A stretch of DNA of 64,000 nucleotides from Myxococcota bacterium (GTDB lineage Bacteria; Myxococcota_A; Polyangia; Nannocystales; Nannocystaceae): contig JBCCHT010000032.1 in NCBI GenBank assembly GCA_039028615.1, positions 32,001-96,000 of the forward strand. Reading direction: 5' to 3'. The notes beneath the pieces were generated by a model that ran no database searches, was not told where the DNA came from, and saw nothing but the letters and a program-made list of their open reading frames with translations. The translations under genes and the position numbers were made by a program. Below are positions 1 through 13,903 of this stretch, piece after piece; position 1 is the stretch's first letter; each line of letters starts with the position of its first letter.

Positions 1-1378
1 GAGCGAGCAATGGCTGGTCTCTGGCCACATCGACCGGGGCACGGCGGCGCTACAGACCGTGCTCGAGCGGCTCGACCTGCGCTGGCCGAGCAGCCCCCGG
101 GCGGCCTGGACGGGAGTCTTACGGGACCTCCCGGCCATTGCCTTGCGCCGTGCCAAACCCCGCGCCGATGGCTTCGACCCCACCGTGCTCGAGCGGGTCG
201 ATGCCTGCTGGTCTGCCGTGCGTGGGCTGTCGTCGGTCGATCATGTGCGGGGCTTGTTCTTCGTCGTTCGGGGCATGCGGCTCGCTGTCGCGGCGGGTGA
301 GCCCACGCGGCTGGCTCGCTTTGGCATGTTCTTCGGCGCACAGCTACGCGCCATGGGGTTGCCGGGCGGGGAGGCGCTGTTCTCCCGCCATCGGGCGTTG
401 GTGGCGGTCGACGACGTCGAACTCTCCACGTATGTCGACTTCCTCGAGGGCTACGTCCGGCTTCAGCAGGGCGATGGCATCGGGGCGGCGGCGGTGCTCG
501 AGCGAGCCCTCGAACGCTTCGCCGACGAGTGCAGCGGCGTGGCCTGGGAGGTCTCGATCTGCCTCAACATGCTGTGCGAGACGGTCAGCGAGGGCGGAGA
601 CATGAATGCGCTGGCCGAGCTCGCGGGACGAGCCCGGCGGCGGGCCGAGTCTCTGGGCGACATCGGCGGGCTGCAGGGGGCCTACACGTTCTTGGCGGCC
701 TGCGCGATGGCCCAGGACCAACCCGGGAAGGCGCGGCGCTACTACGATGACCTGCTGGGCATGTGGACCGTCGAGGGCTTTCACTACCCGCACTTCATGG
801 TCGGGGTGGGGCGCAGTCTCTGCGACCTCTACGAAGGCGAGCCGCGGGCGGCGTGGGATCGCATGGAGTCGCTGCTCGGCCCGCTCGATGCCTCGGGCCT
901 CGGTCGGTCGCCACACATGCGCGCCAAGGCTCTGGCTCGGCGGGCGCAGTGCTGCTTGGCGTTGCTCGGTGCCGACGAGTCCACCCGCGCCGGGGTCGGC
1001 GAGCGAGCGCTGCTGCGGCTCGTTCGTCGTTGTGTCGGCGACTCCAAGCGCCTGCGACGAGCGGATGTGGCGGCCGAGGTGGCGCAGATCGAGGCCGCGC
1101 TGGCGTGGCACGGCGGCGACGTCGATGCGGCGGCGGCGGGCTTGCAGCTGGCCCGGGAGCGCTTCGAGGCGCTGGGTAGCCACGGGCGTGCCCGGCTGTG
1201 CGAGCTTCGCCATCGCCAGATCACGAGTGCATCGACCTCCGCCATCGACGAGGCCCGAGCCGAGATCGCGGCGCTGGGCATCGAGCAGCCGCTGCGATGG
1301 GCCCAGGCCTACGCGCCCGGGTTCTCCGGGAATCGCATGTCGCGGAACATCGCCAGCAAGTCGGCCTCGCTGAGGTAG
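1..1378 (+). CDS. C-terminal part (5'-truncated by window edge) of a helical/TPR-like protein, probably the tail of a myxobacterial Ser/Thr kinase-AAA ATPase
   Basis: Open frame runs from the window edge to TAG at 1376-1378. Ala/Leu/Arg-rich helical repeats end in 'GIEQPLRWAQAYAPG', which resembles the C-termini of myxobacterial kinase-AAA proteins. The kinase domain itself is not in the window. Confidence 0.6.
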   Translation, partial: SEQWLVSGHIDRGTAALQTVLERLDLRWPSSPRAAWTGVLRDLPAIALRRAKPRADGFDPTVLERVDACWSAVRGLSSVDHVRGLFFVVRGMRLAVAAGEPTRLARFGMFFGAQLRAMGLPGGEALFSRHRALVAVDDVELSTYVDFLEGYVRLQQGDGIGAAAVLERALERFADECSGVAWEVSICLNMLCETVSEGGDMNALAELAGRARRRAESLGDIGGLQGAYTFLAACAMAQDQPGKARRYYDDLLGMWTVEGFHYPHFMVGVGRSLCDLYEGEPRAAWDRMESLLGPLDASGLGRSPHMRAKALARRAQCCLALLGADESTRAGVGERALLRLVRRCVGDSKRLRRADVAAEVAQIEAALAWHGGDVDAAAAGLQLARERFEALGSHGRARLCELRHRQITSASTSAIDEARAEIAALGIEQPLRWAQAYAPGFSGNRMSRNIASKSASLR

Positions 1379-1938
1379 CGCGTACCGCTGTCGTCGCGAC
1401 GCGCGAAGCACCACCACAGCGGAATGAACTCCCCGTAGGCGCCCAGCGTGGTGAGGCCGTTGCCGTCGTCCTCACGCCGATGGGTCTGCACCATGGTGTG
1501 CAAGTCGGACAGCGCCAAGCCCCGCTCGTTGGGTCCGCCACCCTCGGGGACGAAGGGCCGACCCCACCGCTCGAAGATCCGGTCGAAGTGTTCGCGGCTG
1601 AAGCGGCCCGAGCCCAGCGCTTGCAAGATCTTGGTGTCCGCGCGTGGCTTGTCCAGGGGCCCGCCGGTCAGGCCCGCCGAGTCGAAGCTGAGGGTGAGCA
1701 GGTTCCGTAGGAAGTTGTGCGGGCCGAAGCCGTTGCCCATCAGCCCCACCCCGGCCACCACCGCGCCGAAGAGGCGTGAGCCGCTATGCGCCCGGGCGTG
1801 CTCGTAGAGCTGTCGTACCGAGGCTCGCCCCACCGCCAGCGGCCGCACGCCGGTCTGCGGCTCGTTGTCGGGGTTCGCCGCGCAGCGCAAGAAAGGGCAG
1901 GGGGTGCCCGGGAGTTGTTCGGGAGGATCGGTGGACAT
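1309..1938 (-). CDS. Small putative peroxygenase-like protein (N-terminal PCP heme-thiolate-like motif plus caleosin-like C-terminal half)
   Basis: ATG at 1938 with GAGG RBS overlapping the lipoxygenase stop. Motifs PCPFLR, GPLDK, GRFSREHFDRIFERW, LALSDLHTM, AYGEF, YLSEADLLAMF..RFP. Confidence 0.55.
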   Translation of the reverse strand: MSTDPPEQLPGTPCPFLRCAANPDNEPQTGVRPLAVGRASVRQLYEHARAHSGSRLFGAVVAGVGLMGNGFGPHNFLRNLLTLSFDSAGLTGGPLDKPRADTKILQALGSGRFSREHFDRIFERWGRPFVPEGGGPNERGLALSDLHTMVQTHRREDDGNGLTTLGAYGEFIPLWWCFARRDDSGTRYLSEADLLAMFRDMRFPENPGA

Positions 1939-1943
1939 CGGCC

Positions 1944-4259
1944 TCACACGTTGCTCGCCACCGTGACCAGCGATGGGCGAAGGTACTCGTAGGGGCGATC
2001 GGATCGGGTGGTCCGATTGTCGAGGGTGATCTCTCGTTCGATCCGAGCCAGGTGTCGCCGCAGCTGCGCGACCATGGGCCAGACGTCGGGGTCTTCGAAC
2101 CAGTCGAGGGCGTACTCGCCTAGGCAGTCGCCGCGAAGCTCGGAGAGCACGAACATCACGCCGGCCTGGGTCAGCGTCGTCTCACCGCCGGGCAGGAACG
2201 CACCGAGGTCGAGCTCGCGAACGCGCCGAGGATCGGCATAGATCGCGGCGGGCACGTGCGAGGGGTCGCACTGCAGGTCGAACTGCCCGTAGTTGACCCC
2301 GCTGTGGAACACGCTCGAGCGGAAGATGATGGAGGTGAGTACGTCGGCGAGCACCTCGGTGTCATCGAAGGACTCGGGGAAGCCGGCCACGTGTCCCCCT
2401 TGCGAGTCACACAGCTCGGCCCGCCAGGCCTCGAGCTCGTGGTCGTCCTTCAGCTCCCGTGCCGAGGGGTAGTAGTGCTGCACGTAGGCGGTGACGAACT
2501 CGTGCAGGGCGTCCCAGAGCCGCAGCCCGTCGTCGCGGAAGGGATAGTTGGGCAGGGCCTCGCGGTCGTCGACGCCGCGGCGGGCGAGCTCTTGCGGCAG
2601 GTGCAGGTCCCAGAAGTCCCACTGCCGATAGTGACGGCGCATGATCTCGATCGAGCCGTCTTCGAGGCGCCCGGACAGGAGCTGCTCGGTGAAGCCCTGC
2701 GGGTTGGTGAGCGTCTGGCGGCCCAGGAAGTTGTTCCACAGCACCAGCCGCAGGTGCACGGCGAGCAGGGCGGCGATGGGATGATCGCGATGCAGCTGGC
2801 GGGCGGTGGCCACGGCGAAGGCCTCGAGTACAAAGTGCACCCCCGCCAGATGCGTGGCCATCTCGTGGTGATTGAACTCGGCACACAGGTACAGCGCCTT
2901 GACCCGGGTCCACAGTTCGTCGCCATCGGCCGGGGTCAGGCACTCGAAGGCTTCGGGGTCGCGCCCCAGCTGAATCGCGATGGGCCACAGCCCCGACGCG
3001 CTGCCCTCTCCCCAGCGATAGAACAGCCCGTAGGGCGCAGGTAGATAGCGCTGACGGGCGGTCTCGGGGCCGAGCAGCTGCCCGAAGAAATCGCGGTCGG
3101 GGCTGTTTTGGCAGGGGATGTCCGCCACCATCCCGAAGTCGGTGAGGAACAGGCGCCCTTGCTCGACCGCCTGCGCCAGCGTGGCATTGCCCGCGGCTTC
3201 GTCGTCCATGCCATGCGCACGAAGGGCCGCTTGCAAGTGTCCGTCATTGACGGCGAAGCCCTCGGGCAGGCCGTGGTCGCCGTCGGTCCCCACACGCCGA
3301 AGCATCACCGGGTTCGTGCCCGCCACCGGACGACGTCCGAACTCGGTGTCGTCGAGCGTGGGGTTGGGCCCGGTCGGCAGGGGCAGGTCGCGAATGAGCC
3401 GGCTGAGGAACATCTGCCCGTCGGGCGCGACCGTGTGGTACCGCCGCATGCGAGCCATGAAGTTCACCAGCAGCTCGGCGGGGGCGACGATGCGCTTGAC
3501 GGAATCGGGCAGCCACGGGTCCGCGGCTCGTCCCGGCTCGGGCGGCAGCTCGGGCTCGGGTTCGGGTTCGGGTTCGCGCCCCACCAGCTGACGCGCATGA
3601 TCGCGGGCGTTGCCGACGACCGCCTCGACGGTGCTTCGGACGAAGCCCTGGACGATCGTCGCCAGCTGCTCCGCATCGGGAAGCGACAGGCCGCCGGACT
3701 CCTGCATCGTGGCCTCCACGACCTCGTCTTGGAGCGCGTCCATGGCTCGGCCCAGCGGGGTGGTGGTGCCCTGGTCGAGGACCCACGTGCTCAGCTCGTC
3801 GACCGAACGCAGCAGCAGATCCGTGAGGGTCATCGCCAGCTGCTGCGCGGTGGGAATCTGTACTCGAAGCACACGACGCTCACCCGGTGACGGCATCAGC
3901 TCTCGCAGGGCTTGCCCGACCCACTGCGGCACTTGCTCACGCGCCAGCTTTCGCGACTGCAGCATGAGGCCCAGCCAGTGCGTCCGAGGGACCCGCTCGA
4001 GCAGCTCGTAGATGGCCGGCCCGGCCCCCAGGGTCTTGCGAATCAGCCACTCGCTGGGCGGCTGTTCGGCGGCAGGAAGCCCGGCAAAGGAACCCGCGAG
4101 CACATCGTAGATCGACAGCACTCCGGTGCCGTCGACGTACGGGATGTGCAAGAACGGGAAGGGGGCGAGGTACTCGTGGTCCCAGCGGTAGAGCGAACGC
4201 TGTTGCTCGAGCTCGTCGGCACGGGCCGTGGAAGGGTCGTGTTGGGGCAAGCGAATCAT
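1944..4259 (-). CDS. Lipoxygenase
   Basis: ATG at 4259 with GGAG RBS. Bacterial LOX N-terminus LPQHDP..ELEQQRSLYRW; EFGRRPVAGTNPVMLRR; LWPIAIQL; iron-ligand motifs HHEMATHLAGVH and FHSGVNYGQ; LPNYPFRDDG; C-terminus PYEYLRPS..ASNV. Confidence 0.95.
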   Translation of the reverse strand: MIRLPQHDPSTARADELEQQRSLYRWDHEYLAPFPFLHIPYVDGTGVLSIYDVLAGSFAGLPAAEQPPSEWLIRKTLGAGPAIYELLERVPRTHWLGLMLQSRKLAREQVPQWVGQALRELMPSPGERRVLRVQIPTAQQLAMTLTDLLLRSVDELSTWVLDQGTTTPLGRAMDALQDEVVEATMQESGGLSLPDAEQLATIVQGFVRSTVEAVVGNARDHARQLVGREPEPEPEPELPPEPGRAADPWLPDSVKRIVAPAELLVNFMARMRRYHTVAPDGQMFLSRLIRDLPLPTGPNPTLDDTEFGRRPVAGTNPVMLRRVGTDGDHGLPEGFAVNDGHLQAALRAHGMDDEAAGNATLAQAVEQGRLFLTDFGMVADIPCQNSPDRDFFGQLLGPETARQRYLPAPYGLFYRWGEGSASGLWPIAIQLGRDPEAFECLTPADGDELWTRVKALYLCAEFNHHEMATHLAGVHFVLEAFAVATARQLHRDHPIAALLAVHLRLVLWNNFLGRQTLTNPQGFTEQLLSGRLEDGSIEIMRRHYRQWDFWDLHLPQELARRGVDDREALPNYPFRDDGLRLWDALHEFVTAYVQHYYPSARELKDDHELEAWRAELCDSQGGHVAGFPESFDDTEVLADVLTSIIFRSSVFHSGVNYGQFDLQCDPSHVPAAIYADPRRVRELDLGAFLPGGETTLTQAGVMFVLSELRGDCLGEYALDWFEDPDVWPMVAQLRRHLARIEREITLDNRTTRSDRPYEYLRPSLVTVASNV

Positions 4260-4329
4260 TCGAGTCTCCAACCGTCGTGAGGGAGTCTCTCACGGGGCTC
4301 GGGGTTTCGGCAGCTGCTACGATGGGCCC

Positions 4330-5262
4330 ATGGCCTGGTTGGAGGGACCCGGACCGTCGTCGACCGTCACGCTGGCGGCTCGCTCCGTGGTCGGGCGGGC
4401 GCCCAACTGTTCGGTGCGTCCCGCCGATCGCCGTGTCTCGGGAGAGCACGCCACGATCGCGTGGTCGGGGGAACGCTGGGAGATTCGCGATCTCGGCAGC
4501 CGCAACGGCACCTTCGTCAACGGCCAGCGGATCGAAGTTCGGCGGGCCGTTCCGCTGAGCGTAGGAGACCAACTGGGTTTCGGTGGCGTCGACGAGGTCT
4601 GGCGCCTGGCCGACGCGAGCCCGCCCGTGGCGACCGCGCGGCGCGTGGGGAGCGGAGAGGTCCTCGTCGCCGAAGGACAGCTGCTGGCCTTACCCAGCGC
4701 GGACGAGCCCTGGATCACCGTTTATCAGGACATGCACGGCACCTGGCAGGCCGAGTCCACCGCGGGGTGCCGGGCGGTCGAGGACGGCGAAGTGCTCGAT
4801 GTCGACGGCCAGGCCTGGGCACTGCACTTGCCCACCACCCTCGAGCCCACCGTCGACGTCGACCAGCGGAACCCGGCCTTCGGCGAGCTGGAGCTGAGTT
4901 TCTCCGTCAGCAGCGACGAAGAAGACGTCGAGCTCATCGTCCGTCACGAGGGGCAACCGCTCGAACTCGGAGGGCGAGCCCACCACTTCGTGCTCTTGTT
5001 GCTCGCCCGGGCCCGACTCGAAGATGCCCAACAACCCGGCCTGTCCGAGGCCGAGCACGGCTGGCGCTACGTCGAGGACGTCTGCCAGATGCTGCGGGTG
5101 GACGATCTACGCCTGAACACTGCGATCTATCGCGCCCGCAAGGAGCTGGGTGCCATCGGGGTTCGCGGGGCGCCGCAGCTGGTGGAGCGCCGTCGTTCGT
5201 CGCGAAGCCTGCGGCTGGGCACGGGCGCGGTCACGGTCACCCGCAGCGGCCCGATTCACTGA
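4330..5262 (+). CDS. FHA-domain protein with C-terminal winged-helix DNA-binding-like domain (putative transcriptional regulator)
   Basis: FHA motifs VGR..C, VSGEHA, IRDLGSRNGTFVNG. C-terminal 'LNTAIYRARKEL..LVERR' resembles an OmpR-type wHTH. Confidence 0.85.
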   Translation: MAWLEGPGPSSTVTLAARSVVGRAPNCSVRPADRRVSGEHATIAWSGERWEIRDLGSRNGTFVNGQRIEVRRAVPLSVGDQLGFGGVDEVWRLADASPPVATARRVGSGEVLVAEGQLLALPSADEPWITVYQDMHGTWQAESTAGCRAVEDGEVLDVDGQAWALHLPTTLEPTVDVDQRNPAFGELELSFSVSSDEEDVELIVRHEGQPLELGGRAHHFVLLLLARARLEDAQQPGLSEAEHGWRYVEDVCQMLRVDDLRLNTAIYRARKELGAIGVRGAPQLVERRRSSRSLRLGTGAVTVTRSGPIH

Positions 5263-6150: not shown

Positions 6151-7257
6151 TCAGGACACGACCACCACCATGGCCGCCAGCCCCACCGCGACACGCGCAA
6201 ACTCGAGGGGCACCGCCCAGCGTCGTCGTTCGAGCAGTCCCCCGCCAGCGACCACGGAGACCACGAGCCAGGCGACCATGGCCACGCGAAAACCGAGGCT
6301 CCAGTCGTCGCCCACCAACAGCGTCCAGCCGAGCACGGGCGGAATCAGCAGCCCCGAAAGGCCCACGTACCAGCGCAACGACCTCGTGCCCAGGGCCTCG
6401 GGGTGGGTCTCGGGCGAGGAGCTGCGATGGCCGGGCACGAGCCGCGCGAGGTGGGCGGGACCCGCCAGCCACAGGCGCAGGCGGTTTGCACCGTGGGCTC
6501 GTTGCGTGGCCGCGACCAGCTCGCGGAAGATCGCGAAGTTGCCCCACACCGAGTTGAGCGTGTGCAGCGGCTTGGTGAGGCCATAGCTGGGCTCTTCGTG
6601 TTCCTCTTGGAAGGTCCCGAACAGCCGGTCCCACACCACCAGGATGCAGGCGTAGTTGCGGTCGAGATACTTCTCGTTGCGGCCGTGGTGCACCCGGTGA
6701 TGCGACGGCGTGTTGAACACCCACTCGATTGGGCCCAGCTTGGGCACGTAGCGGGTGTGCATCAGGAACTGATACAGGAAGTCGAAGACCACGATGCCGA
6801 TGAACATCTCGATCGGCATGATGAGCGCCAAGGGGATGCGCCAGGGCCAGGAGGTCAGCTTCTGGAACGCGGCCTGGCGCAGCGCGGCGGCGAGGTTGTA
6901 GTCCTCGGCCGCGTGGTGGACCCCGTGGATGGCCCACAGAAAGTGAATCTCGTGGTGGTGACGGTGCAGCCAGTAGCTGGACAGGTCGAACGCGATGATG
7001 CCGATGACCCAGGCCCACCACGCATCGGTGGGCAGCAGGTCCCAGGTGACCAGCTGGGCGACGGCGAGGAAGGGGAGCGCCATCAGGCCCTTGGTGAGAA
7101 AATCGAAGGCCTGGTAGACGACGCCGTGGCCGATGTTCACGACCATCTCGCCCACGCGATAGCCACCGTCCTGCCGTAGTCGGCTCACCGCCAGTTCCGC
7201 GGTGATGAGCGCCACGAAGAAGAGGTAGGCGATCGCGAGCATCTGCAGTTCGGTCAT
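6151..7257 (-). CDS. Fatty acid hydroxylase/sterol desaturase superfamily membrane di-iron enzyme, alkylglycerol monooxygenase-like
   Basis: His boxes YWLHRHHH, WAIHGVHH, YQFLMHT, TPSHHRVHHGRN..YLDRNY..WDRLFGTF; multiple TM helices. Confidence 0.9.
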   Translation of the reverse strand: MTELQMLAIAYLFFVALITAELAVSRLRQDGGYRVGEMVVNIGHGVVYQAFDFLTKGLMALPFLAVAQLVTWDLLPTDAWWAWVIGIIAFDLSSYWLHRHHHEIHFLWAIHGVHHAAEDYNLAAALRQAAFQKLTSWPWRIPLALIMPIEMFIGIVVFDFLYQFLMHTRYVPKLGPIEWVFNTPSHHRVHHGRNEKYLDRNYACILVVWDRLFGTFQEEHEEPSYGLTKPLHTLNSVWGNFAIFRELVAATQRAHGANRLRLWLAGPAHLARLVPGHRSSSPETHPEALGTRSLRWYVGLSGLLIPPVLGWTLLVGDDWSLGFRVAMVAWLVVSVVAGGGLLERRRWAVPLEFARVAVGLAAMVVVVS

Positions 7258-7859
7258 GAGGAGCCTCCGAGGGCGGGCAAGATGCGGCCCAGTTGCTCGA
7301 CCAGCGCGATGACGGGGTCCGACTGGCCGGGGCGTTCGTAGCTGGCACCGACCGCCAGCCCGTTGAAGATGGAAAACACCAGGCTGGGCAGGACCTCCGC
7401 GAGTGCGGGGGGCACATGGCGGAGATCGACCAGCGCCATGAAGGCGGAGCGGACCTCGTTGTCGAAGCGGGTCATCAGCGCCCGCATGGGTTCACGAAGC
7501 TGGGGGTCGGTACGGGCCGCGACCGCCAGCTCCAGCCACGCCACATAGACGGGGCCCTGCCACTCTGCCCACAGCTGCTGCACGAGCGCGGTCGGCTGCA
7601 GCGGGGACTGGCCCTGCCGCGACGCGACGAAGCGGGCGACTCGCTCGGCGAGGATCGAGTCGAGGGCGGCGAGCAGCAGCGCGTTGCGGTTGGGGAAGTG
7701 GTGCAACATCGTGCCGCGAGAAACCCCCGCGCGTCGGCACACCTCCTGGGTACTGGTGCCCGCATAACCGCACTCGGCCAGCGACTCGATCGTCGCGTCC
7801 ATCAGCTTGGCCCTCGTCTGTTCCGAGCGCGATTGCTTGGGTGTGCTGTCTGCGGACAT
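7254..7859 (-). CDS. TetR/AcrR family transcriptional regulator
   Basis: N-terminal HTH 'GYAGTSTQEVCRRAGVSRGTMLHHFP'; ATGA overlap with the downstream desaturase. Confidence 0.95.
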   Translation of the reverse strand: MSADSTPKQSRSEQTRAKLMDATIESLAECGYAGTSTQEVCRRAGVSRGTMLHHFPNRNALLLAALDSILAERVARFVASRQGQSPLQPTALVQQLWAEWQGPVYVAWLELAVAARTDPQLREPMRALMTRFDNEVRSAFMALVDLRHVPPALAEVLPSLVFSIFNGLAVGASYERPGQSDPVIALVEQLGRILPALGGSS

Positions 7860-7930: not shown

Positions 7931-8358
7931 TAAAAACCAGCTCTTCTCGGTCCGAATAACGTTGTTATCCGAACACCTACGCGGCCAATCGATGTTCTCC
8001 ATCGTTTTGTGCGGGGTGGGCCGAGGGCGATCGAAACTGAGGTTCGACGAACTCGAGGCCTTCCGGCGACGACCCATTGCCGATGGCATCGCCGTCGATG
8101 ACGGGCGGGTCCGGGCTCCGTGATCGATGTGGCGTCTGGTGGATCCGCGTGTCATTGAACCCGAGTCGACGCTCAATGGGTCGACATGAGACGAGGCCTG
8201 AATTGCGCAGCCCCCATCGCGCGTAGCCCTGGCTCGAATCTCGTGTGGTTAGTTCCCTGAGTCGTCGTCCCGACACTCGATCGCGACGCAATCCGATCGT
8301 CGCTCGTGCGTCTCCTTCACCATGTGCAAGCGGGTGCGAACGCTTGCCTCCAAGTCCC

Positions 8359-10371
8359 ATGAAGCTCTCTCGTCCCGCCCCCCTCGTTGCACTGTCTGCG
8401 TTGTCCGTTCTGGCTCCCGGTTGCGTGGACGTGACCGACATCGAGCCCGAGTTCATCGACGAGCCCGCCCACGAGCGTGACACCCAGACCGTGACCGAGG
8501 CCGACTACGCGGGTGCATGCCCGGATACGCGGTTCATCGCTCGCTCGATCAGCCCCAGCCACTGTCCCGAGATCGACGGATGGATCGCGAGGTCGCTGTT
8601 CGAGGAAGGCTCGCCGTGGCTGATGGCAGCGCCCTCGGCCGCGGTCTCCGACTCGGATGGACATCTGTGCCGCTACTCGTGGGACGAGGTGGTCGAGCTG
8701 GGGGAGGCGCATGACAACCTCGAGCTGGCCGCGACCGGCTTGGCCGCCACGGTCGATGACCCGGAGCCACCCGTCCCGCCCGTGTTGCACGACTACAGCT
8801 CCGACTGTGAGGTCGTACGGGGTCAGCGAGGCTCGGCCATCTCGGACGTCGTCGGTCCGGGGGTGCGTCAGGTCTTCCGCGATCAAATCGGCTGGGTCCC
8901 CGGGGTGGCGTTGCCGCCCGGGTCCTCACCCGTCGCCGTCGCCGTGGTCGACACGATGCCGACCAGCGAGCCCGACGACCCGCGTTCGGAGCACGGCGAG
9001 CTCATGGCCCGCATCATCGAAGACGTGGCGTGCTCGGGTGGATTTCCCTGCGACGTGTCCGTCAGTCGCATCCTGGGCTTGCCTCGCTACATCGCGGGCG
9101 AAGACCGAGATCGGGGCGGCTACGTGGGGAGCCACGGCGATCTGGCGGTGGGCATCGTGGAGTCGGTCGAGCGCTGGCGCCTCGGTCACCCCATCCCCGC
9201 CCTTCGTCCTCCGCTCATCATCAACCTGAGCGTGGGCTGGGAAGCTACGCTCTTCGGATCCGGCGAGACCGTCTCGACGGAAGCCGTCGAGATTGCCATG
9301 GAGTATGCCTCGTGCCACGGCGCCCTGCTGGTGGCGTCGGCCGGCAACTCCAACTCGGCGTGCCAAGCGGGCGCCATGGCTCCTGCGATGTGGGAGAACC
9401 GAGCGGCCCCGGACTCGGCTCGCTGTCAGGAGCTCGGGTTCCCGCCCAATAGCTGGAACTCCGGCTATCGCCCCTTGGTGCACGCGGTGGGCGGCTTGAC
9501 CTTCCAGGGCGAGGACATGCCGGGCACCCGCCCCGAGAGCATGCCGCGGATGGCCGCCCACTCGACCCATGCCTACGCGGGCAGTGCGGTGCTGAGTAGC
9601 TCGCTCACCGGGACCTCGGTCGGAGCGGCCGCGGTCACTGGAGCGGCTGCCTTGGTGTGGTCCTACGATCCTTCGCTGCAAGCCCACGAGGTCATGGAAC
9701 TCGTCTATGCGGGGAGCGCCGACTTGGGGCGCAATGCCGACCTGCACATCGCGGGCAACGGTGCAGACACCGTTCATCGGCTGGACGTCTGCGAGGTCCT
9801 GCAAAACCAGTGCTCGCAGGATGCCCTCTGCAGCGCGGCGGGGGTGAACCTCGGCTGCACGCCGCCGGCTCACCACGACATGGATGCGGTTGCGGATGCG
9901 GTCGCGAACATTCCCGTCGCCGATTCGTATGCGCCGGCCTTCGGTGCCGCCCTGGCGTGTGCACCCATCTGTGGCGTGCCCAGCGAGGCCTATAGCGAGA
10001 CGTCGACCGTCTGCAACGAGATCGAGCCCGATCCGGTGGTGTTGTTCGTCAACCCGCAGCCCAACCTGCCCACGTGCTCCAACTGCACGCTGACCGACGA
10101 TGATGCCGACGATGACGCCGAGGCGTGGCAGGTGCACGCCTCGCTCGACTCGTTCTACGACGGCGCGCCCATCGAGCGGGTCGTGGTGACGGTGACCAGC
10201 GACATCATGGAGCGCTTCGATTTCGGTGCCGTGCCGCTCAGCTCCGACCGCGTGACGGTGCTCGAGCTCGGTTCTTGGGTGGCGCCGCCCCATATCCGGG
10301 CGGCCGAGATCGACATGTACTTCACGGGAAAGGACGCGCCCGTCACGAACGACATCATCGTCAAGCAGTAG
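8359..10371 (+). CDS. Subtilase (peptidase S8) family lipoprotein, Cys-rich
   Basis: Lipobox LAPGC. Catalytic-type motifs VAVVDT (Asp), HGELMA (His), IINLSVG, SAGN (oxyanion), GTSVGAAAVTG (Ser). Confidence 0.85.
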   Translation: MKLSRPAPLVALSALSVLAPGCVDVTDIEPEFIDEPAHERDTQTVTEADYAGACPDTRFIARSISPSHCPEIDGWIARSLFEEGSPWLMAAPSAAVSDSDGHLCRYSWDEVVELGEAHDNLELAATGLAATVDDPEPPVPPVLHDYSSDCEVVRGQRGSAISDVVGPGVRQVFRDQIGWVPGVALPPGSSPVAVAVVDTMPTSEPDDPRSEHGELMARIIEDVACSGGFPCDVSVSRILGLPRYIAGEDRDRGGYVGSHGDLAVGIVESVERWRLGHPIPALRPPLIINLSVGWEATLFGSGETVSTEAVEIAMEYASCHGALLVASAGNSNSACQAGAMAPAMWENRAAPDSARCQELGFPPNSWNSGYRPLVHAVGGLTFQGEDMPGTRPESMPRMAAHSTHAYAGSAVLSSSLTGTSVGAAAVTGAAALVWSYDPSLQAHEVMELVYAGSADLGRNADLHIAGNGADTVHRLDVCEVLQNQCSQDALCSAAGVNLGCTPPAHHDMDAVADAVANIPVADSYAPAFGAALACAPICGVPSEAYSETSTVCNEIEPDPVVLFVNPQPNLPTCSNCTLTDDDADDDAEAWQVHASLDSFYDGAPIERVVVTVTSDIMERFDFGAVPLSSDRVTVLELGSWVAPPHIRAAEIDMYFTGKDAPVTNDIIVKQ

Positions 10372-10374
10372 CGC

Positions 10375-13134
10375 TCAGGGAACGAGCACGTGCAGCGTCG
10401 CCCAGCTCGAGCTCGGAGCATCGACTCTGAGCTCGAGCTGTACCGCACGGAGGGCGGCCGCGAGATCGGCCTTCGGCTGTTGGGCGAGCTGCTCGGCGAT
10501 GCCCTCACCCACGCGCAGCGCGAGCTGATCGTCGAGGGTCCCGCTGGCGGCCAGCACCTCCTGGGCTCCGGCCAGTACGAAGGCTCGACCGAGGTTGACG
10601 CCGCCCGCCCACGCTCCCGCGCTATGGGACCCGGTATCGCAGCCCGCCAGGATCACCGCGGGGGGCACTCGGGACACGGCGAGTAGATCGATGACGCCCA
10701 GCTCACCGCCGTGTAGCAACAGGGCTGCATCCCACCCACCGGCTCCTCGATGTGCCCCGTGACCGGCGTAGTGCAGCAAGGCCGCGCTCTTCAGGCTCTC
10801 GAGGACGTTGGCTCGGGTCGCGCCCTCTCCATCGTGGCGGCCCACCTGCCAGCCCGCGCTCACCAGGGTCTGTTCGACGGCCCGGGCCTCGTTGCGGGCG
10901 GCGGGGAGGTTCTGCGAGGGGTCGGCCACGACGATGGCCCGGCGGGAGTCCACCGCGGCGGCGGGACGAGGCGGAAGGTCGAGGGCATGCACCAGCGGCG
11001 CAACGTCGAGCAAGGTCCGGTCGCCCACCCGAACCTTGGCCAAGGTCGGGTCTCGGTCGCGGCCGTCCGCCATGATGCGAATGCGCGTGGCGCCGTGCAG
11101 CGCCTCGGAGAAGGTCTCGAGAGTCTCGGGGGTCCAGCGGGTAGGCCCGGGGCTCGAGGGCAGCTGAGCCACCTCGACTCGACCGGCATCGTCGCCCACG
11201 AACGCCAAGCTCTGGTTTTGGTGCGAGAGGATGAGCAGCACTCGCTCGCCGCTCGGCACGGGAGGCAGTTGCTCGCAGCTCGGGGGCGGAGGCTCGAGCA
11301 GCAGGGTTCGCGTGGCCTCTTCGAAGGCCGCCGTCGCCTCGAGGTGTCGTTCGGATCGCCGGGCGCGACGGTTGATCTGCTGGGTCTCCGAGAGCGTCCA
11401 GTCCTCGCGAGCCTGGGCCTGGAGTTCGGCCCGGGTCTCGAGCAGGCCGAACGAGACCTGCTCCCATCGTGTTCGCTCCGCTGCGGGCAGACCCGCGATG
11501 CGGGCGGCGCGGTCCATTCTTCGCAGCGCCCGACGCCGGGCCATGCGTGCGCGGCACAAGGCCTCGGTCCGCTGCCCGCGGGCGACGAGGCGCTGCACCA
11601 GGCCCCACGCACTGGCCGACCGATCCCACAGGAAGTTCTCCGCGCCCACGCCCGTGCCCCCGGACGCCGAGGCCTCGTCGAGCAGGCCTTCGGCTGCTGC
11701 GTAGGCTTCGATGGCGGCTTCGTCGAGGCCGAGCCGGGTCAGCAGCGCGCCCCGGCGCACGGCCACGCTCCAGTCGAGGCCGAGCTCACCCGAGGGCGGG
11801 GTGCGAGCGAGCAGGGGAGGGGCCTGCTCCCAGCGCCCGGTGGCCAGCGCGACTTGGGCTCCGATCTCCGCGACCCAGGGCTCGAGCCACTGCGGCACGC
11901 CGTCGGCCCGCAGTTGCTGGTAGCGATCGTGAGCGTGCTCGAAGTCGCCTTCGACCAGCGCGGCGATGGCCAGGTTCACGCGCTGGTTCACCGCTTGCGT
12001 CGGATCGGGGCACTCGTGCTCGGACGCCTGCAGCGAGCGTTCGAAGGTCTCCCAGGGCACGTCCGCGGTGTGCCCCATCTGCACCATGCGCAGCTGGGCC
12101 CATCCCAGGTTGCCGAGCAAGCCACGTCGCATATGGCAGCGCAGGCGGGTGGAGTCGGCCAGGCGCATGCCTCGTTGCACGACGGCCATGGCCTCTTCGG
12201 TGCGTCCCAGCTCGCCGAGGAGCACCGCGTGTTGCTCGAGGGTCGTCGCCTGGTGGCTGAACATGCCCAGGCGGTCGGCTCGACGCTCCGCTTCGGCGAT
12301 CTGGGCCACCGCGGTGTGGAGGTCGCCCGTGGCGCTCAGCAGCAGCCCGCGATAGTACGGCGCCCAGGAGCGCGCCTCGGAGACCGTCTCGGTCAGCTGC
12401 TCGAGCCGCTCGATCCACTGCTGCGCCCGGTGCAGTGATTTGTCGAGGATGGCCCGGTAGGCGATCGCGGAGGCGATGTCGGCGAGGTCTCGATCGGCGC
12501 CCAAGGTTCGCGCGAGTGCGGCCGCCCGCTCGGCGGTCTTGGTGCCCTCGTCGACCGCCCCGGTGTTGTCGTGCAACCGCCTCAGGCGCTGGAGCACGGC
12601 CAGCCGAGCTTCGGGCTCGAGCGTCGGCAGGGCGTCGGTGAGCACCTGAATCTCTCGGTCGTATCCCTCCGCTTTGCCGAGCGCCTTCGCTTCACCCAAG
12701 ATCGGAGGCGCGCTGGTCCACTGCAGCGGGAGGGCGAAGGGCTCGGGCCACTGCGGGTCGATGCCCCCGAGCTGCACGACCGCGGTGTCGCTCGGGGGCC
12801 GAAGCACCACGTGTTGACCGCCGTCCACCGGCCGGGTCTGCAGTTCCAGGGGCTGCCCGTCCGCCGTGGCCTGCAAGGTCGCGGATGCGTCGGCATCGAT
12901 CCACAGGTTGAGGGTGGCGGTGCCCTTGCGACCCGCTCGCACGACACACTTCGGGCCCTGGCGCGAACGGCATCCGCGGACCTCGACCGTCGGTGTCTCG
13001 CCCAGGACGATCGTCGAGGGGCTCGCGGGCGCGGGAGGAGGCGGCGGCTCCTTCGAGCACGCGGCGACCACCAGGGCGACCAGCGGTGCCCCGAGCCGTC
13101 TGCGTTCAGCCGGATGGCGACGTGACCGTCGCAT
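10375..13134 (-). CDS. TPR-CHAT (caspase-like cysteine protease) domain protein, probable lipoprotein
   Basis: LVALVVAAC signal/lipobox; TPR-like helices; CHAT motifs VVADP..LPAARNEA, LLHYAGHG (His), VILAGCDTG (Cys), AFVLAGA, LRAVQ..WA. Start approximate. Confidence 0.85.
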   Translation of the reverse strand: MRRSRRHPAERRRLGAPLVALVVAACSKEPPPPPAPASPSTIVLGETPTVEVRGCRSRQGPKCVVRAGRKGTATLNLWIDADASATLQATADGQPLELQTRPVDGGQHVVLRPPSDTAVVQLGGIDPQWPEPFALPLQWTSAPPILGEAKALGKAEGYDREIQVLTDALPTLEPEARLAVLQRLRRLHDNTGAVDEGTKTAERAAALARTLGADRDLADIASAIAYRAILDKSLHRAQQWIERLEQLTETVSEARSWAPYYRGLLLSATGDLHTAVAQIAEAERRADRLGMFSHQATTLEQHAVLLGELGRTEEAMAVVQRGMRLADSTRLRCHMRRGLLGNLGWAQLRMVQMGHTADVPWETFERSLQASEHECPDPTQAVNQRVNLAIAALVEGDFEHAHDRYQQLRADGVPQWLEPWVAEIGAQVALATGRWEQAPPLLARTPPSGELGLDWSVAVRRGALLTRLGLDEAAIEAYAAAEGLLDEASASGGTGVGAENFLWDRSASAWGLVQRLVARGQRTEALCRARMARRRALRRMDRAARIAGLPAAERTRWEQVSFGLLETRAELQAQAREDWTLSETQQINRRARRSERHLEATAAFEEATRTLLLEPPPPSCEQLPPVPSGERVLLILSHQNQSLAFVGDDAGRVEVAQLPSSPGPTRWTPETLETFSEALHGATRIRIMADGRDRDPTLAKVRVGDRTLLDVAPLVHALDLPPRPAAAVDSRRAIVVADPSQNLPAARNEARAVEQTLVSAGWQVGRHDGEGATRANVLESLKSAALLHYAGHGAHRGAGGWDAALLLHGGELGVIDLLAVSRVPPAVILAGCDTGSHSAGAWAGGVNLGRAFVLAGAQEVLAASGTLDDQLALRVGEGIAEQLAQQPKADLAAALRAVQLELRVDAPSSSWATLHVLVP

Positions 13135-13903
13135 GCACGCTGAGCGTACGCCACGCGGTGTCGTCGGGCGAACTCGGCAGCTGCTGCAACGACTCGGGGA
13201 GCGCGTCGGGGGGGCCGACCAACAGCTCGAGCGTCCATTCCCCGGGGGAGAGCGCAATGAAGCGATTGAGCGGCCCCTTCAGGTGGATACCGCCGTTGGC
13301 CGAGATCTCGACGCCCTGGGCCGGTCGTACCAGCTTCGCGGGCACGCCGTTGCGGCGCGCCACGACGACAACGGCGACCGTGTCCCGAAACGGCGTCTTC
13401 GGGGTCAGCACGAGATCGAGCGGGCCGTCGAACTGAAGCTCGATGCGCTGGCCGGGCTCGGGCTCGCCCGCGCGATCGGAGGCCTGGCCCGCGGCGAGGC
13501 GCGTGATGGAGTACGAGGGCAGCGACGCGACCAGGTCCCGTTCCGGGCTCGGCGAGCGCGGGCTGCCCCACCACAGCAGGAGCATGGCGGCGACGGCCAC
13601 CACGGCGACGACGACGGTGATCGCCGCTCCGCGACCACGGCTGGGCGACGGTGCGAGCGGGACCACGTTGTCCGACGTGTCGCTCGTAGCCTCGCCATCA
13701 TCGGTACCGGTATCGGCGTCGTTCGAAGCGTCGTCGTCCTCCGACGCATCGAGGCGCGCGAAGGCGCCATCCAGCACCGAGCCCCGCTCGTCACTCGACA
13801 AGAGGCGACTCAGCGCCTCGGGAGCATCGCCCCGGGACAGCTGGTCCTCTCGGTCTCGCAGGTCTTCGCCCAGCGCGTGCAAGATCTCGTCCTCCTCCGT
13901 CAT
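13106..13903 (-). CDS. Putative membrane-anchored anti-sigma factor
   Basis: ATGA-coupled to the ECF gene. Acidic cytoplasmic N-terminus, 'NVVPL', single TM (VVVAVVAVAAMLLLWW), extracytoplasmic beta-domain. Confidence 0.65.
   Translation of the reverse strand: MTEEDEILHALGEDLRDREDQLSRGDAPEALSRLLSSDERGSVLDGAFARLDASEDDDASNDADTGTDDGEATSDTSDNVVPLAPSPSRGRGAAITVVVAVVAVAAMLLLWWGSPRSPSPERDLVASLPSYSITRLAAGQASDRAGEPEPGQRIELQFDGPLDLVLTPKTPFRDTVAVVVVARRNGVPAKLVRPAQGVEISANGGIHLKGPLNRFIALSPGEWTLELLVGPPDALPESLQQLPSSPDDTAWRTLSVHATVTSPSG

Follow-up and report, generated by a model that had tools for sequence, protein, structure and literature searches.

Bacterial unspecific peroxygenases (BUPOs) carry a PCP motif and a distal His/Lys/Arg-Glu pair, and have no Mg-binding EHD motif (Lopez-Tavera et al., 2026; PMC13394420). 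The published survey lists 188 proteins in clades I-VI (PMC13394420). Three have been purified; they contain thiolate-ligated heme, give CO bands at 441-443 nm and show modest, slow activity driven by H2O2 (PMC13394420). All three transfer oxygen, with one-electron peroxidase activity as well, and are poor on unactivated palmitate; organic peroxides have been suggested by the authors as preferred co-substrates (PMC13394420). Here we examine a locus of a Myxococcota bacterium (Nannocystaceae) in which a gene of this family, encoding protein P0001, lies directly downstream of a lipoxygenase (LOX) gene, encoding P0002. The locus is part of a 64,000-nucleotide stretch of contig JBCCHT010000032.1 (assembly GCA_039028615.1, positions 32,001 to 96,000), which we call the window.

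Known heme partners of LOXs, whether heme-thiolate (CYP74) or catalase-related, rearrange hydroperoxides without a second substrate. A LOX is not a known partner for an enzyme of the UPO type, and we have not found the LOX-BUPO pairing described. The main text of PMC13394420 contains no occurrence of lipoxygenase, hydroperoxide or caleosin, and the main text of a preprint on the enzymes Myx1UPO, Myx2UPO and PolUPO (10.1101/2025.11.27.690923) mentions neither lipoxygenase nor caleosin. A literature search on unspecific peroxygenase and lipoxygenase returned no linked pair, by title and start of abstract, among the papers listed, with most subscription journals outside its coverage. The three preprint enzymes may be closer to P0001 than other described BUPOs.

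The lipoxygenase and BUPO genes

The minus strand of the window holds a 771-aa open reading frame (ORF; 4259-1944) followed by one of 209 aa (1938-1309). Their main features are:

1944..4259, minus strand: lipoxygenase P0002, 771 aa (Pfam PF00305, E 6e-48; all iron ligands)
1939..1947, minus strand: junction of LOX stop and BUPO start (TGA, 5 nt, ATG; or GTG overlapping the stop), from the sequence
1309..1938, minus strand: BUPO-family protein P0001, 209 aa, predicted heme-thiolate peroxygenase fold (profile, model, conservation)
1897..1899, minus strand: Cys14 of the PCP motif, predicted axial heme ligand (43/44 rows of alignment A2; aligns with the PCP of solved UPOs)
1648..1650, minus strand: Lys97, predicted charge stabiliser (Lys in 42/44 and Arg in 1/44 rows of A2)
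1429..1431, minus strand: Glu170, predicted distal acid-base catalyst (42/44 in A2; aligns with the GE glutamate of UPOs 9he6 and 9wa6)

Searched as a single sequence, P0001 gave no PDB match below E 0.99 (phmmer), no match in NCBIfam and, in Pfam, only a weak caleosin match (14.6 bits, cut-off 27), with no match to PF01328. A profile built from seven close relatives, at 50-69% identity, matches the solved heme-thiolate peroxidase 9he6 (E 5.6e-4) over a span that takes in the catalytic-Glu region and the C-terminal motif. Exhaustive profile search found 62 proteins at E <= 0.001. Alignment A2 (44 rows) combines eight close proteins with 36 near-full-length single-domain matches, fragments and five long fusions being left out, and its profile reaches further UPO structures, 9wa6 among them (best profile E 2.5e-4). 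None of the 44 members matches PF01328 at E <= 1. At the same threshold P0001, with 209 aa and its Cys at residue 14, has no P450 or catalase domain in Pfam. Relatives were absent from viral contigs and, in a search with P0021, from plasmids.

Structure comparison had been set beforehand as a check, and it places UPOs at the top. In VIA, the AlphaFold2 model of P0001 (pLDDT 93) has four fungal UPOs and chloroperoxidase as its top five matches (Z 13.5-10.9, root-mean-square deviation (rmsd) 2.8-3.1 A, 168-174 residues), the best with Z 13.5 and rmsd 3.0 A over 171 aligned residues. The next rows, at Z 6.0 or below, are EF-hand proteins aligned over the C-terminal half only. The Foldseek rows listed to rank 31 are all UPOs (TM 0.53-0.61), and the Atlas match is to the Peroxidase_2 set (score 0.96), in a cluster of which 15% is PF01328. 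Profile matches and comparisons of the predicted model strongly indicate, as the initial annotation had proposed, that P0001 is a Cys-ligated heme enzyme of the chloroperoxidase/UPO fold, and we infer that it binds heme.

The PCPFLR motif reported at the N-terminus is present at residues 13-18, and Cys14 and Pro15 are each kept in 43 of the 44 rows of A2. The only row without the Cys14 motif, P0009, is a truncated record: the database protein lacks its N-terminus, and at its locus (L009:5986-6825) an upstream GTG restores the PCP motif. P0009 has a second Cys-Pro-Phe motif near its C-terminus, as do P0020 and P0045, and its locus adjoins transposase-like ORFs. The EHD/EGD motif had also been noted as lacking. 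This part stands, as none of the 44 rows has the Mg-binding motif, and it is unremarkable because BUPOs also have no EHD. The reading that there is no distal motif is nevertheless ruled out by Lys97 and Glu170, a distal acid-base pair with each residue in 42/44 rows. An Arg stabiliser as in long UPOs is likewise ruled out, since that position is Thr163 and is not conserved. Lys97 was matched by eye to HydBUPO Lys95, through motif comparison with Table S2; HydBUPO Lys95 has been equated with His110 of HspUPO (PMC13394420).

P0001 thus fits the published BUPO family, described in 2025-26, as a divergent branch. The family is known, and the suggestion of a new one has to be dropped. With BUPOs, the nearest being HydBUPO (clade V) and clade VI, P0001 shares the PCP Cys, the Lys/Glu pair, the absence of a Mg-binding EHD, a length of about 210 aa and a chloroperoxidase-like fold. 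Its profile reaches P0021, which by eye closely resembles HydBUPO, and 668-935-aa fusions (P0028, P0041) whose long C-terminal domain has CxxCH motifs, as described for clade VI. However, P0001 is only 22-33% identical to these relatives, is coupled to a LOX and occupies a separate branch: the sequences of PMC13394420 were compared with it by eye only, and in our tree it branches separately from the HydBUPO-like group. The same fold (Z 10.9-13.5) is found in chloroperoxidase and in the short and long UPOs of fungi (Peroxidase_2; PDB 9iz8, 7o1r, 9he6, 1cpo), which also share with P0001 the PCP at the N-terminus, the distal Glu and the C-terminal F-x-D/E-x-R-F/L-P motif. P0001 differs from them in being 10-18% identical, in having no EHD/EGD Mg site and Lys in place of His or Arg, in beginning at the PCP region with no visible signal peptide, and in giving no PF01328 match.

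Among the wider relatives, P0046, P0031 and P0040 are BUPO-like proteins with eukaryotic-looking N-termini; the signal-like start of P0046 presumably resembles diatom plastid-targeting sequences. In P0044, P0050 and P0060, proteins of 1672-1846 aa with extended hydrophobic stretches, the BUPO domain is C-terminal, an architecture not seen in the parts of PMC13394420 consulted.

The upstream gene is a LOX, as annotated: P0002 matches Pfam PF00305 (E 6e-48) and has the complete iron-ligand set. All 20 aligned LOXs share His470, His475, His652 and Asn656, and the C-terminal residue, which supplies the carboxylate ligand in iron LOXs, is Val instead of the usual Ile. The best PDB match of P0002 is 5med (E 3.8e-60), and the coral allene oxide synthase (AOS)-LOX fusion (3dy5) is also among its PDB matches. 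Gly513 aligns with Ala300 of 5med, at a position that we take to be the Coffa site. Because Gly occupies this presumed site, P0002 is predicted to be an R-type LOX that makes R-products; the Gly/Ala switch is described in PMC13319228. P0002 has a long insertion ahead of the catalytic domain, including a Pro-Glu repeat (window 3541-3580), and only the linked LOX clade has this insertion.

The LOX stop (1946-1944) is followed by the BUPO ATG 5 nt downstream. This gap had been correctly noted, but the claim that the stop overlaps a working ribosome-binding site (RBS) did not hold up. A purine patch, GAGG, overlaps the stop, and its end is only 3 nt from the ATG, a spacing too short for a canonical Shine-Dalgarno RBS. 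An alternative in-frame GTG start at 1947, which overlaps the LOX stop, would give a 212-aa form of P0001, and relatives have the stop-start overlaps TGATG (L001, L006) and ATGA (L008). Because the GAGG is too close to the ATG, the GTG overlaps the stop and relatives have such overlaps, it is likelier that BUPO translation is coupled to LOX via re-initiation than that it uses a true RBS. The LOX ATG itself has a GGAG 6 nt ahead of it (minus strand, 4269-4266). Terminator-like sites do not exceed chance (2 observed vs 1.5 expected). Among sequencing runs, no RNA data set was listed as holding the sequence, a result that has no bearing on whether the genes are expressed.

Conservation of the pair and its surrounding cassette

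The linkage count covers four close-clade lineages: the window, L008, L001 with the near-identical L006, and L002. Duplicates were merged (L001, L007, L010, L012 and L017 are one sequence; L002, L004, L018 and L049 another), and P0004-P0007 and P0010-P0020 were without genomic context. In this neighbourhood survey, which had been proposed as a check, the LOX gene stands directly upstream of the BUPO gene in all four lineages, one of them broken; the linkage is thus conserved in the P0001 clade. Stop-start contact occurs in all three intact lineages via three different junction sequences (TGATG, ATGA and the window form), and identity among the linked proteins is 58-68% (BUPO) and 67-68% (LOX). 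In the broken lineage, L002, a deletion joins the LOX start to the BUPO end and there is a frameshift; this structure may be an assembly error. P0002 is the sole LOX match and P0001 the sole BUPO match in the 12.3-Mb genome of the window. BUPO matches were found in 4/73 genomes of the family, 4/401 of the class and 2/401 of the phylum sample, and LOX matches in 32/73 genomes of the family.

Two further genes and a spacer flank the pair:

4260..4329, no strand: spacer of 70 nt between the divergent LOX and FHA genes, from the sequence
4330..5262, plus strand: FHA-domain protein, divergent from LOX (Pfam FHA, E 8.6e-20)
1..1378, plus strand: 3' part of the gene for a large protein that combines a Ser/Thr kinase, an AAA_16 (STAND-type) NTPase and a tail of helical repeats (Pkinase 4e-46, AAA_16 1.5e-23)

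The kinase-AAA_16 gene begins before the window, is convergent with the BUPO gene and overlaps its 3' end by 70 nt; its counterparts in L012, L006 and L008 are 50-52% identical. Counterparts of the FHA protein, presumably a regulator, are 56% identical in L012 and L006, with a 52-residue start in L008. No sigma-70 consensus promoter was found in the 70-nt LOX/FHA spacer. The kinase/LOX/BUPO/FHA cassette occurs in three of the four linked lineages (flanking genes at 50-60% identity), and genes beyond it give only generic kinase matches between lineages. Since the window genome has only about four kinases and two FHA proteins of this kind, the cassette is not a chance neighbourhood. In L002/L049 the LOX-BUPO pair stands with no FHA gene and no kinase tail beside it.

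Elsewhere in the window genome there are a PfaD-family gene followed by a polyketide synthase-like gene, and 12 desaturases, one of them fused to cytochrome b5 (L055 and L052). These genes make polyunsaturated substrates plausible. Within the window, a TetR regulator gene and then a fatty-acid hydroxylase/sterol desaturase family gene (6151-7859, minus strand) lie 2 kb from LOX, a pair not found beside the other linked copies. At 8245-13257 a subtilase-family gene is convergent with a TPR-CHAT domain gene.

Proposed chemistry and its alternatives

We propose that the LOX and P0001 form a two-step oxylipin unit in which P0001 uses the LOX hydroperoxide in place of H2O2, and we regard this proposal as evenly poised between true and false. 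The LOX would make a fatty-acid hydroperoxide. Cys14 would ligate the heme of P0001, and Glu170, held by Lys97, would cleave the O-O bond heterolytically to give Compound I and a hydroxy fatty acid. Compound I would then oxygenate a double bond, either in that fatty acid or in a different one, yielding epoxy-alcohols or epoxides. Heterolytic cleavage is favoured because the Glu/Lys pair of established UPO chemistry is kept, and fungal UPOs epoxidise unsaturated fatty acids (PMC11719350). The conversion of LOX hydroperoxides to epoxy/hydroxy oxylipins, as the initial annotation had it, is suggested by gene order. The oxygen transfer would be the same as that of plant caleosin peroxygenases, although the caleosin heme is His-ligated. 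The flanking kinase-NTPase and FHA genes may control when the pair is expressed. The proposal is also favoured by a second genome, G209, in which a gene of the caleosin peroxygenase family lies beside an unrelated LOX.

Several observations weigh against it. Isomerisation by LOXs themselves can turn their hydroperoxides into epoxy alcohols, with no partner involved (PMC13319228). All linked BUPOs fall into a single clade (98/95; P0008 is labelled as linked in the tree on the basis of a near-identical copy in L001), as do the linked LOXs, and thus the pairing arose once and is rare, with no repeated recruitment. Three more distant BUPOs, those of L009 (52% identity; 6 kb on each side), L013 and L014, have no LOX in the DNA retrieved around them. 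Conversely, 0/27 out-of-clade LOX loci (of 30 returned) have a BUPO within ~1.5 kb, and the loci without a nearby BUPO include those of the sister LOX clade, in which the Coffa position is likewise Gly. Of the four linked copies, that of L002 carries a deletion and a frameshift. No LOX-BUPO fusion was found, longer or fused forms being absent among 7999 candidates, which is a weak test. Finally, kinase and FHA genes accompany the pair in 3/4 lineages, so plain block inheritance is possible.

Such block inheritance underlies the first alternative, namely that P0001 is an ordinary BUPO, acting with H2O2 on small substrates, and that it has a LOX beside it because a single ancestral gene order has been retained, through descent or through transfer of the cassette. 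The single origin of the linked clades and the co-inheritance of all four genes in three lineages are what one would expect in this case; moreover, published BUPOs work with H2O2, and 3/3 out-of-clade BUPOs are without a LOX nearby. We nonetheless consider it unlikely, given that stop-start contact is kept across three different junction sequences, that in L002/L049 the pair is kept without its two companion genes, and that a 12-Mb genome holds a sole LOX match and a sole BUPO match.

Alternatively, P0001 could perform CYP74-like chemistry on a UPO scaffold, in which homolytic cleavage gives an allene oxide, an aldehyde plus oxo-acid, a divinyl ether or an epoxy-alcohol with no second substrate. 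The same linkage evidence speaks for this as for a LOX-fuelled peroxygenase. As in coral and cyanobacterial catalase-related AOS-LOX and plant CYP74 systems, a Gly-type LOX adjoins a heme enzyme that would be expected to use up its hydroperoxide. In contrast to those systems, P0001 has a third fold (UPO), is encoded by a separate, probably translationally coupled gene and keeps an acid-base pair. To our knowledge CYP74 enzymes have no distal Glu/Lys pair; that P0001 keeps this pair, which is used for heterolysis, makes the homolytic route less probable still than simple co-inheritance.

P0001 might also be only a detoxifier, a peroxidase that reduces the LOX hydroperoxide to the alcohol with a small reductant, for cell protection or to complete a hydroxy-fatty-acid signal, without oxygen transfer. 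The one-electron peroxidase activity of BUPOs and their poor performance on unactivated palmitate agree with such a role, but the three characterised BUPOs do transfer oxygen and fungal UPOs epoxidise unsaturated fatty acids (PMC11719350), and we hold it to be improbable, a little below the homolytic route.

Caleosins and the UPO fold

Caleosins are recognised by a pair of invariant His, an EF-hand that binds Ca and a segment that binds lipid (PMC6309107; defining features also in PMC5808235). The caleosin-like identity first suggested for P0001 is not borne out, and a caleosin-type, His-ligated P0001 is highly improbable: the Pfam match is weak (14.6 bits) and the family profiles do align over 174 columns, but 0/44 A2 members reach the Pfam gathering score of 27 bits, only 4/44 match, weakly (best E 0.011), PCP Cys is kept in 43/44, and the invariant His columns hold Cys19 and Lys97/Pro98 in P0001. 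Because it has neither invariant His, P0001 is ruled out as a caleosin; nor does it have an acidic Ca-binding EF-hand loop or a hydrophobic lipid-binding segment (top 19-residue hydropathy 1.08). What it shares with caleosin/peroxygenases (PF05042, EC 1.11.2.3) is the proposed role downstream of LOX and aligned columns at Glu170 and Lys97/Pro98; what sets it apart is Cys14 and the presence of neither caleosin His.

The likeness of the C-terminal half to caleosins, first seen by eye, is weak for P0001 alone and above chance at the level of the family. In hhalign, a profile of 30 bacterial caleosins aligned with A2 over 174 columns (93.9%, E 1.6e-7). A rerun with a trimmed profile that lacked P0082 reached a score of 40, whereas 60 block shuffles reached <=26 and reversal gave 9.5; as controls against A2, eight LOX slices and two EF-hand ORFs gave <=14.5, and four single caleosins 25-30. 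The alignment puts the second caleosin His at Lys97/Pro98, the near-invariant caleosin Glu on Glu170 and the first His five residues after Cys14. For a predicted model of a bacterial caleosin (pLDDT 91.5), the top matches are three UPOs (Z 9.3-8.7, 156-160 of 189 residues; best rmsd 3.7 A over 156), and EF-hand proteins cover only ~60-90 residues.

Profile and predicted-model comparison therefore support the structural link between peroxygenase families that the initial annotation had raised, but other results weigh against it. The Z values of 9.3-8.7 are within the range that the tool warns about for helical proteins. An Atlas search of the caleosin, with PF05042 left out, returned nothing but unnamed clusters and EF-hand clusters, at <=0.77. 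The narrow profile A3 reached 28.6% and the N-terminal half alone 0.9%. Foldseek of the caleosin model ranks calmodulins first, although the only listed row with TM > 0.5 is a UPO. No solved caleosin is among the 60 matches listed. On balance the profiles and predicted models indicate that caleosins share the whole UPO fold, and we think common ancestry of caleosins and UPOs probable. A literature search on caleosin and chloroperoxidase found no statement of a fold link, with most subscription journals outside its coverage.

Bacterial caleosin-family proteins exist (29 matches; for example L046:1477-2046; alignment A4), and it is their model that has the UPO fold. Two His-ligated Foldseek matches set aside in PMC13394420 may be proteins of this kind. 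In G209, the Pfam caleosin gene (L047:1360-2055, plus strand) is convergent to, and ~0.5 kb from, a LOX of another clade (L048:6871-8778, minus strand). It is one of two caleosin matches in 301 genomes, and the intervening DNA contains runs of N as well as repeats of the LOX end.

More tentatively, and with the balance of probability against the combination as a whole, one could envision LOX-fuelled P0001 making a new bacterial lipid signal within a kinase/NTPase-controlled cassette, with caleosins and UPOs forming one superfamily. Its members would have a doubled EF-hand-like fold and a shared distal base/Glu pair; their ligand, Cys in some and His in others, would sit on the same N-terminal helix, and BUPOs would be the bridge. 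If the caleosin-UPO fold match is true, it would assign a catalytic Glu, and distinct roles for the two His, to plant and fungal caleosins.

The BUPOs are a known, barely studied enzyme family; what appears to be new here is the pairing of one of them with a LOX. The operon names a specific candidate co-substrate for a BUPO, a LOX-made lipid hydroperoxide, and so makes an open question about these enzymes testable. If our proposal is true, it would give LOX pathways a third heme fold, beside those of CYP74 and of catalase-related enzymes, and would suggest a biocatalyst for fatty-acid epoxidation that supplies its own peroxide.

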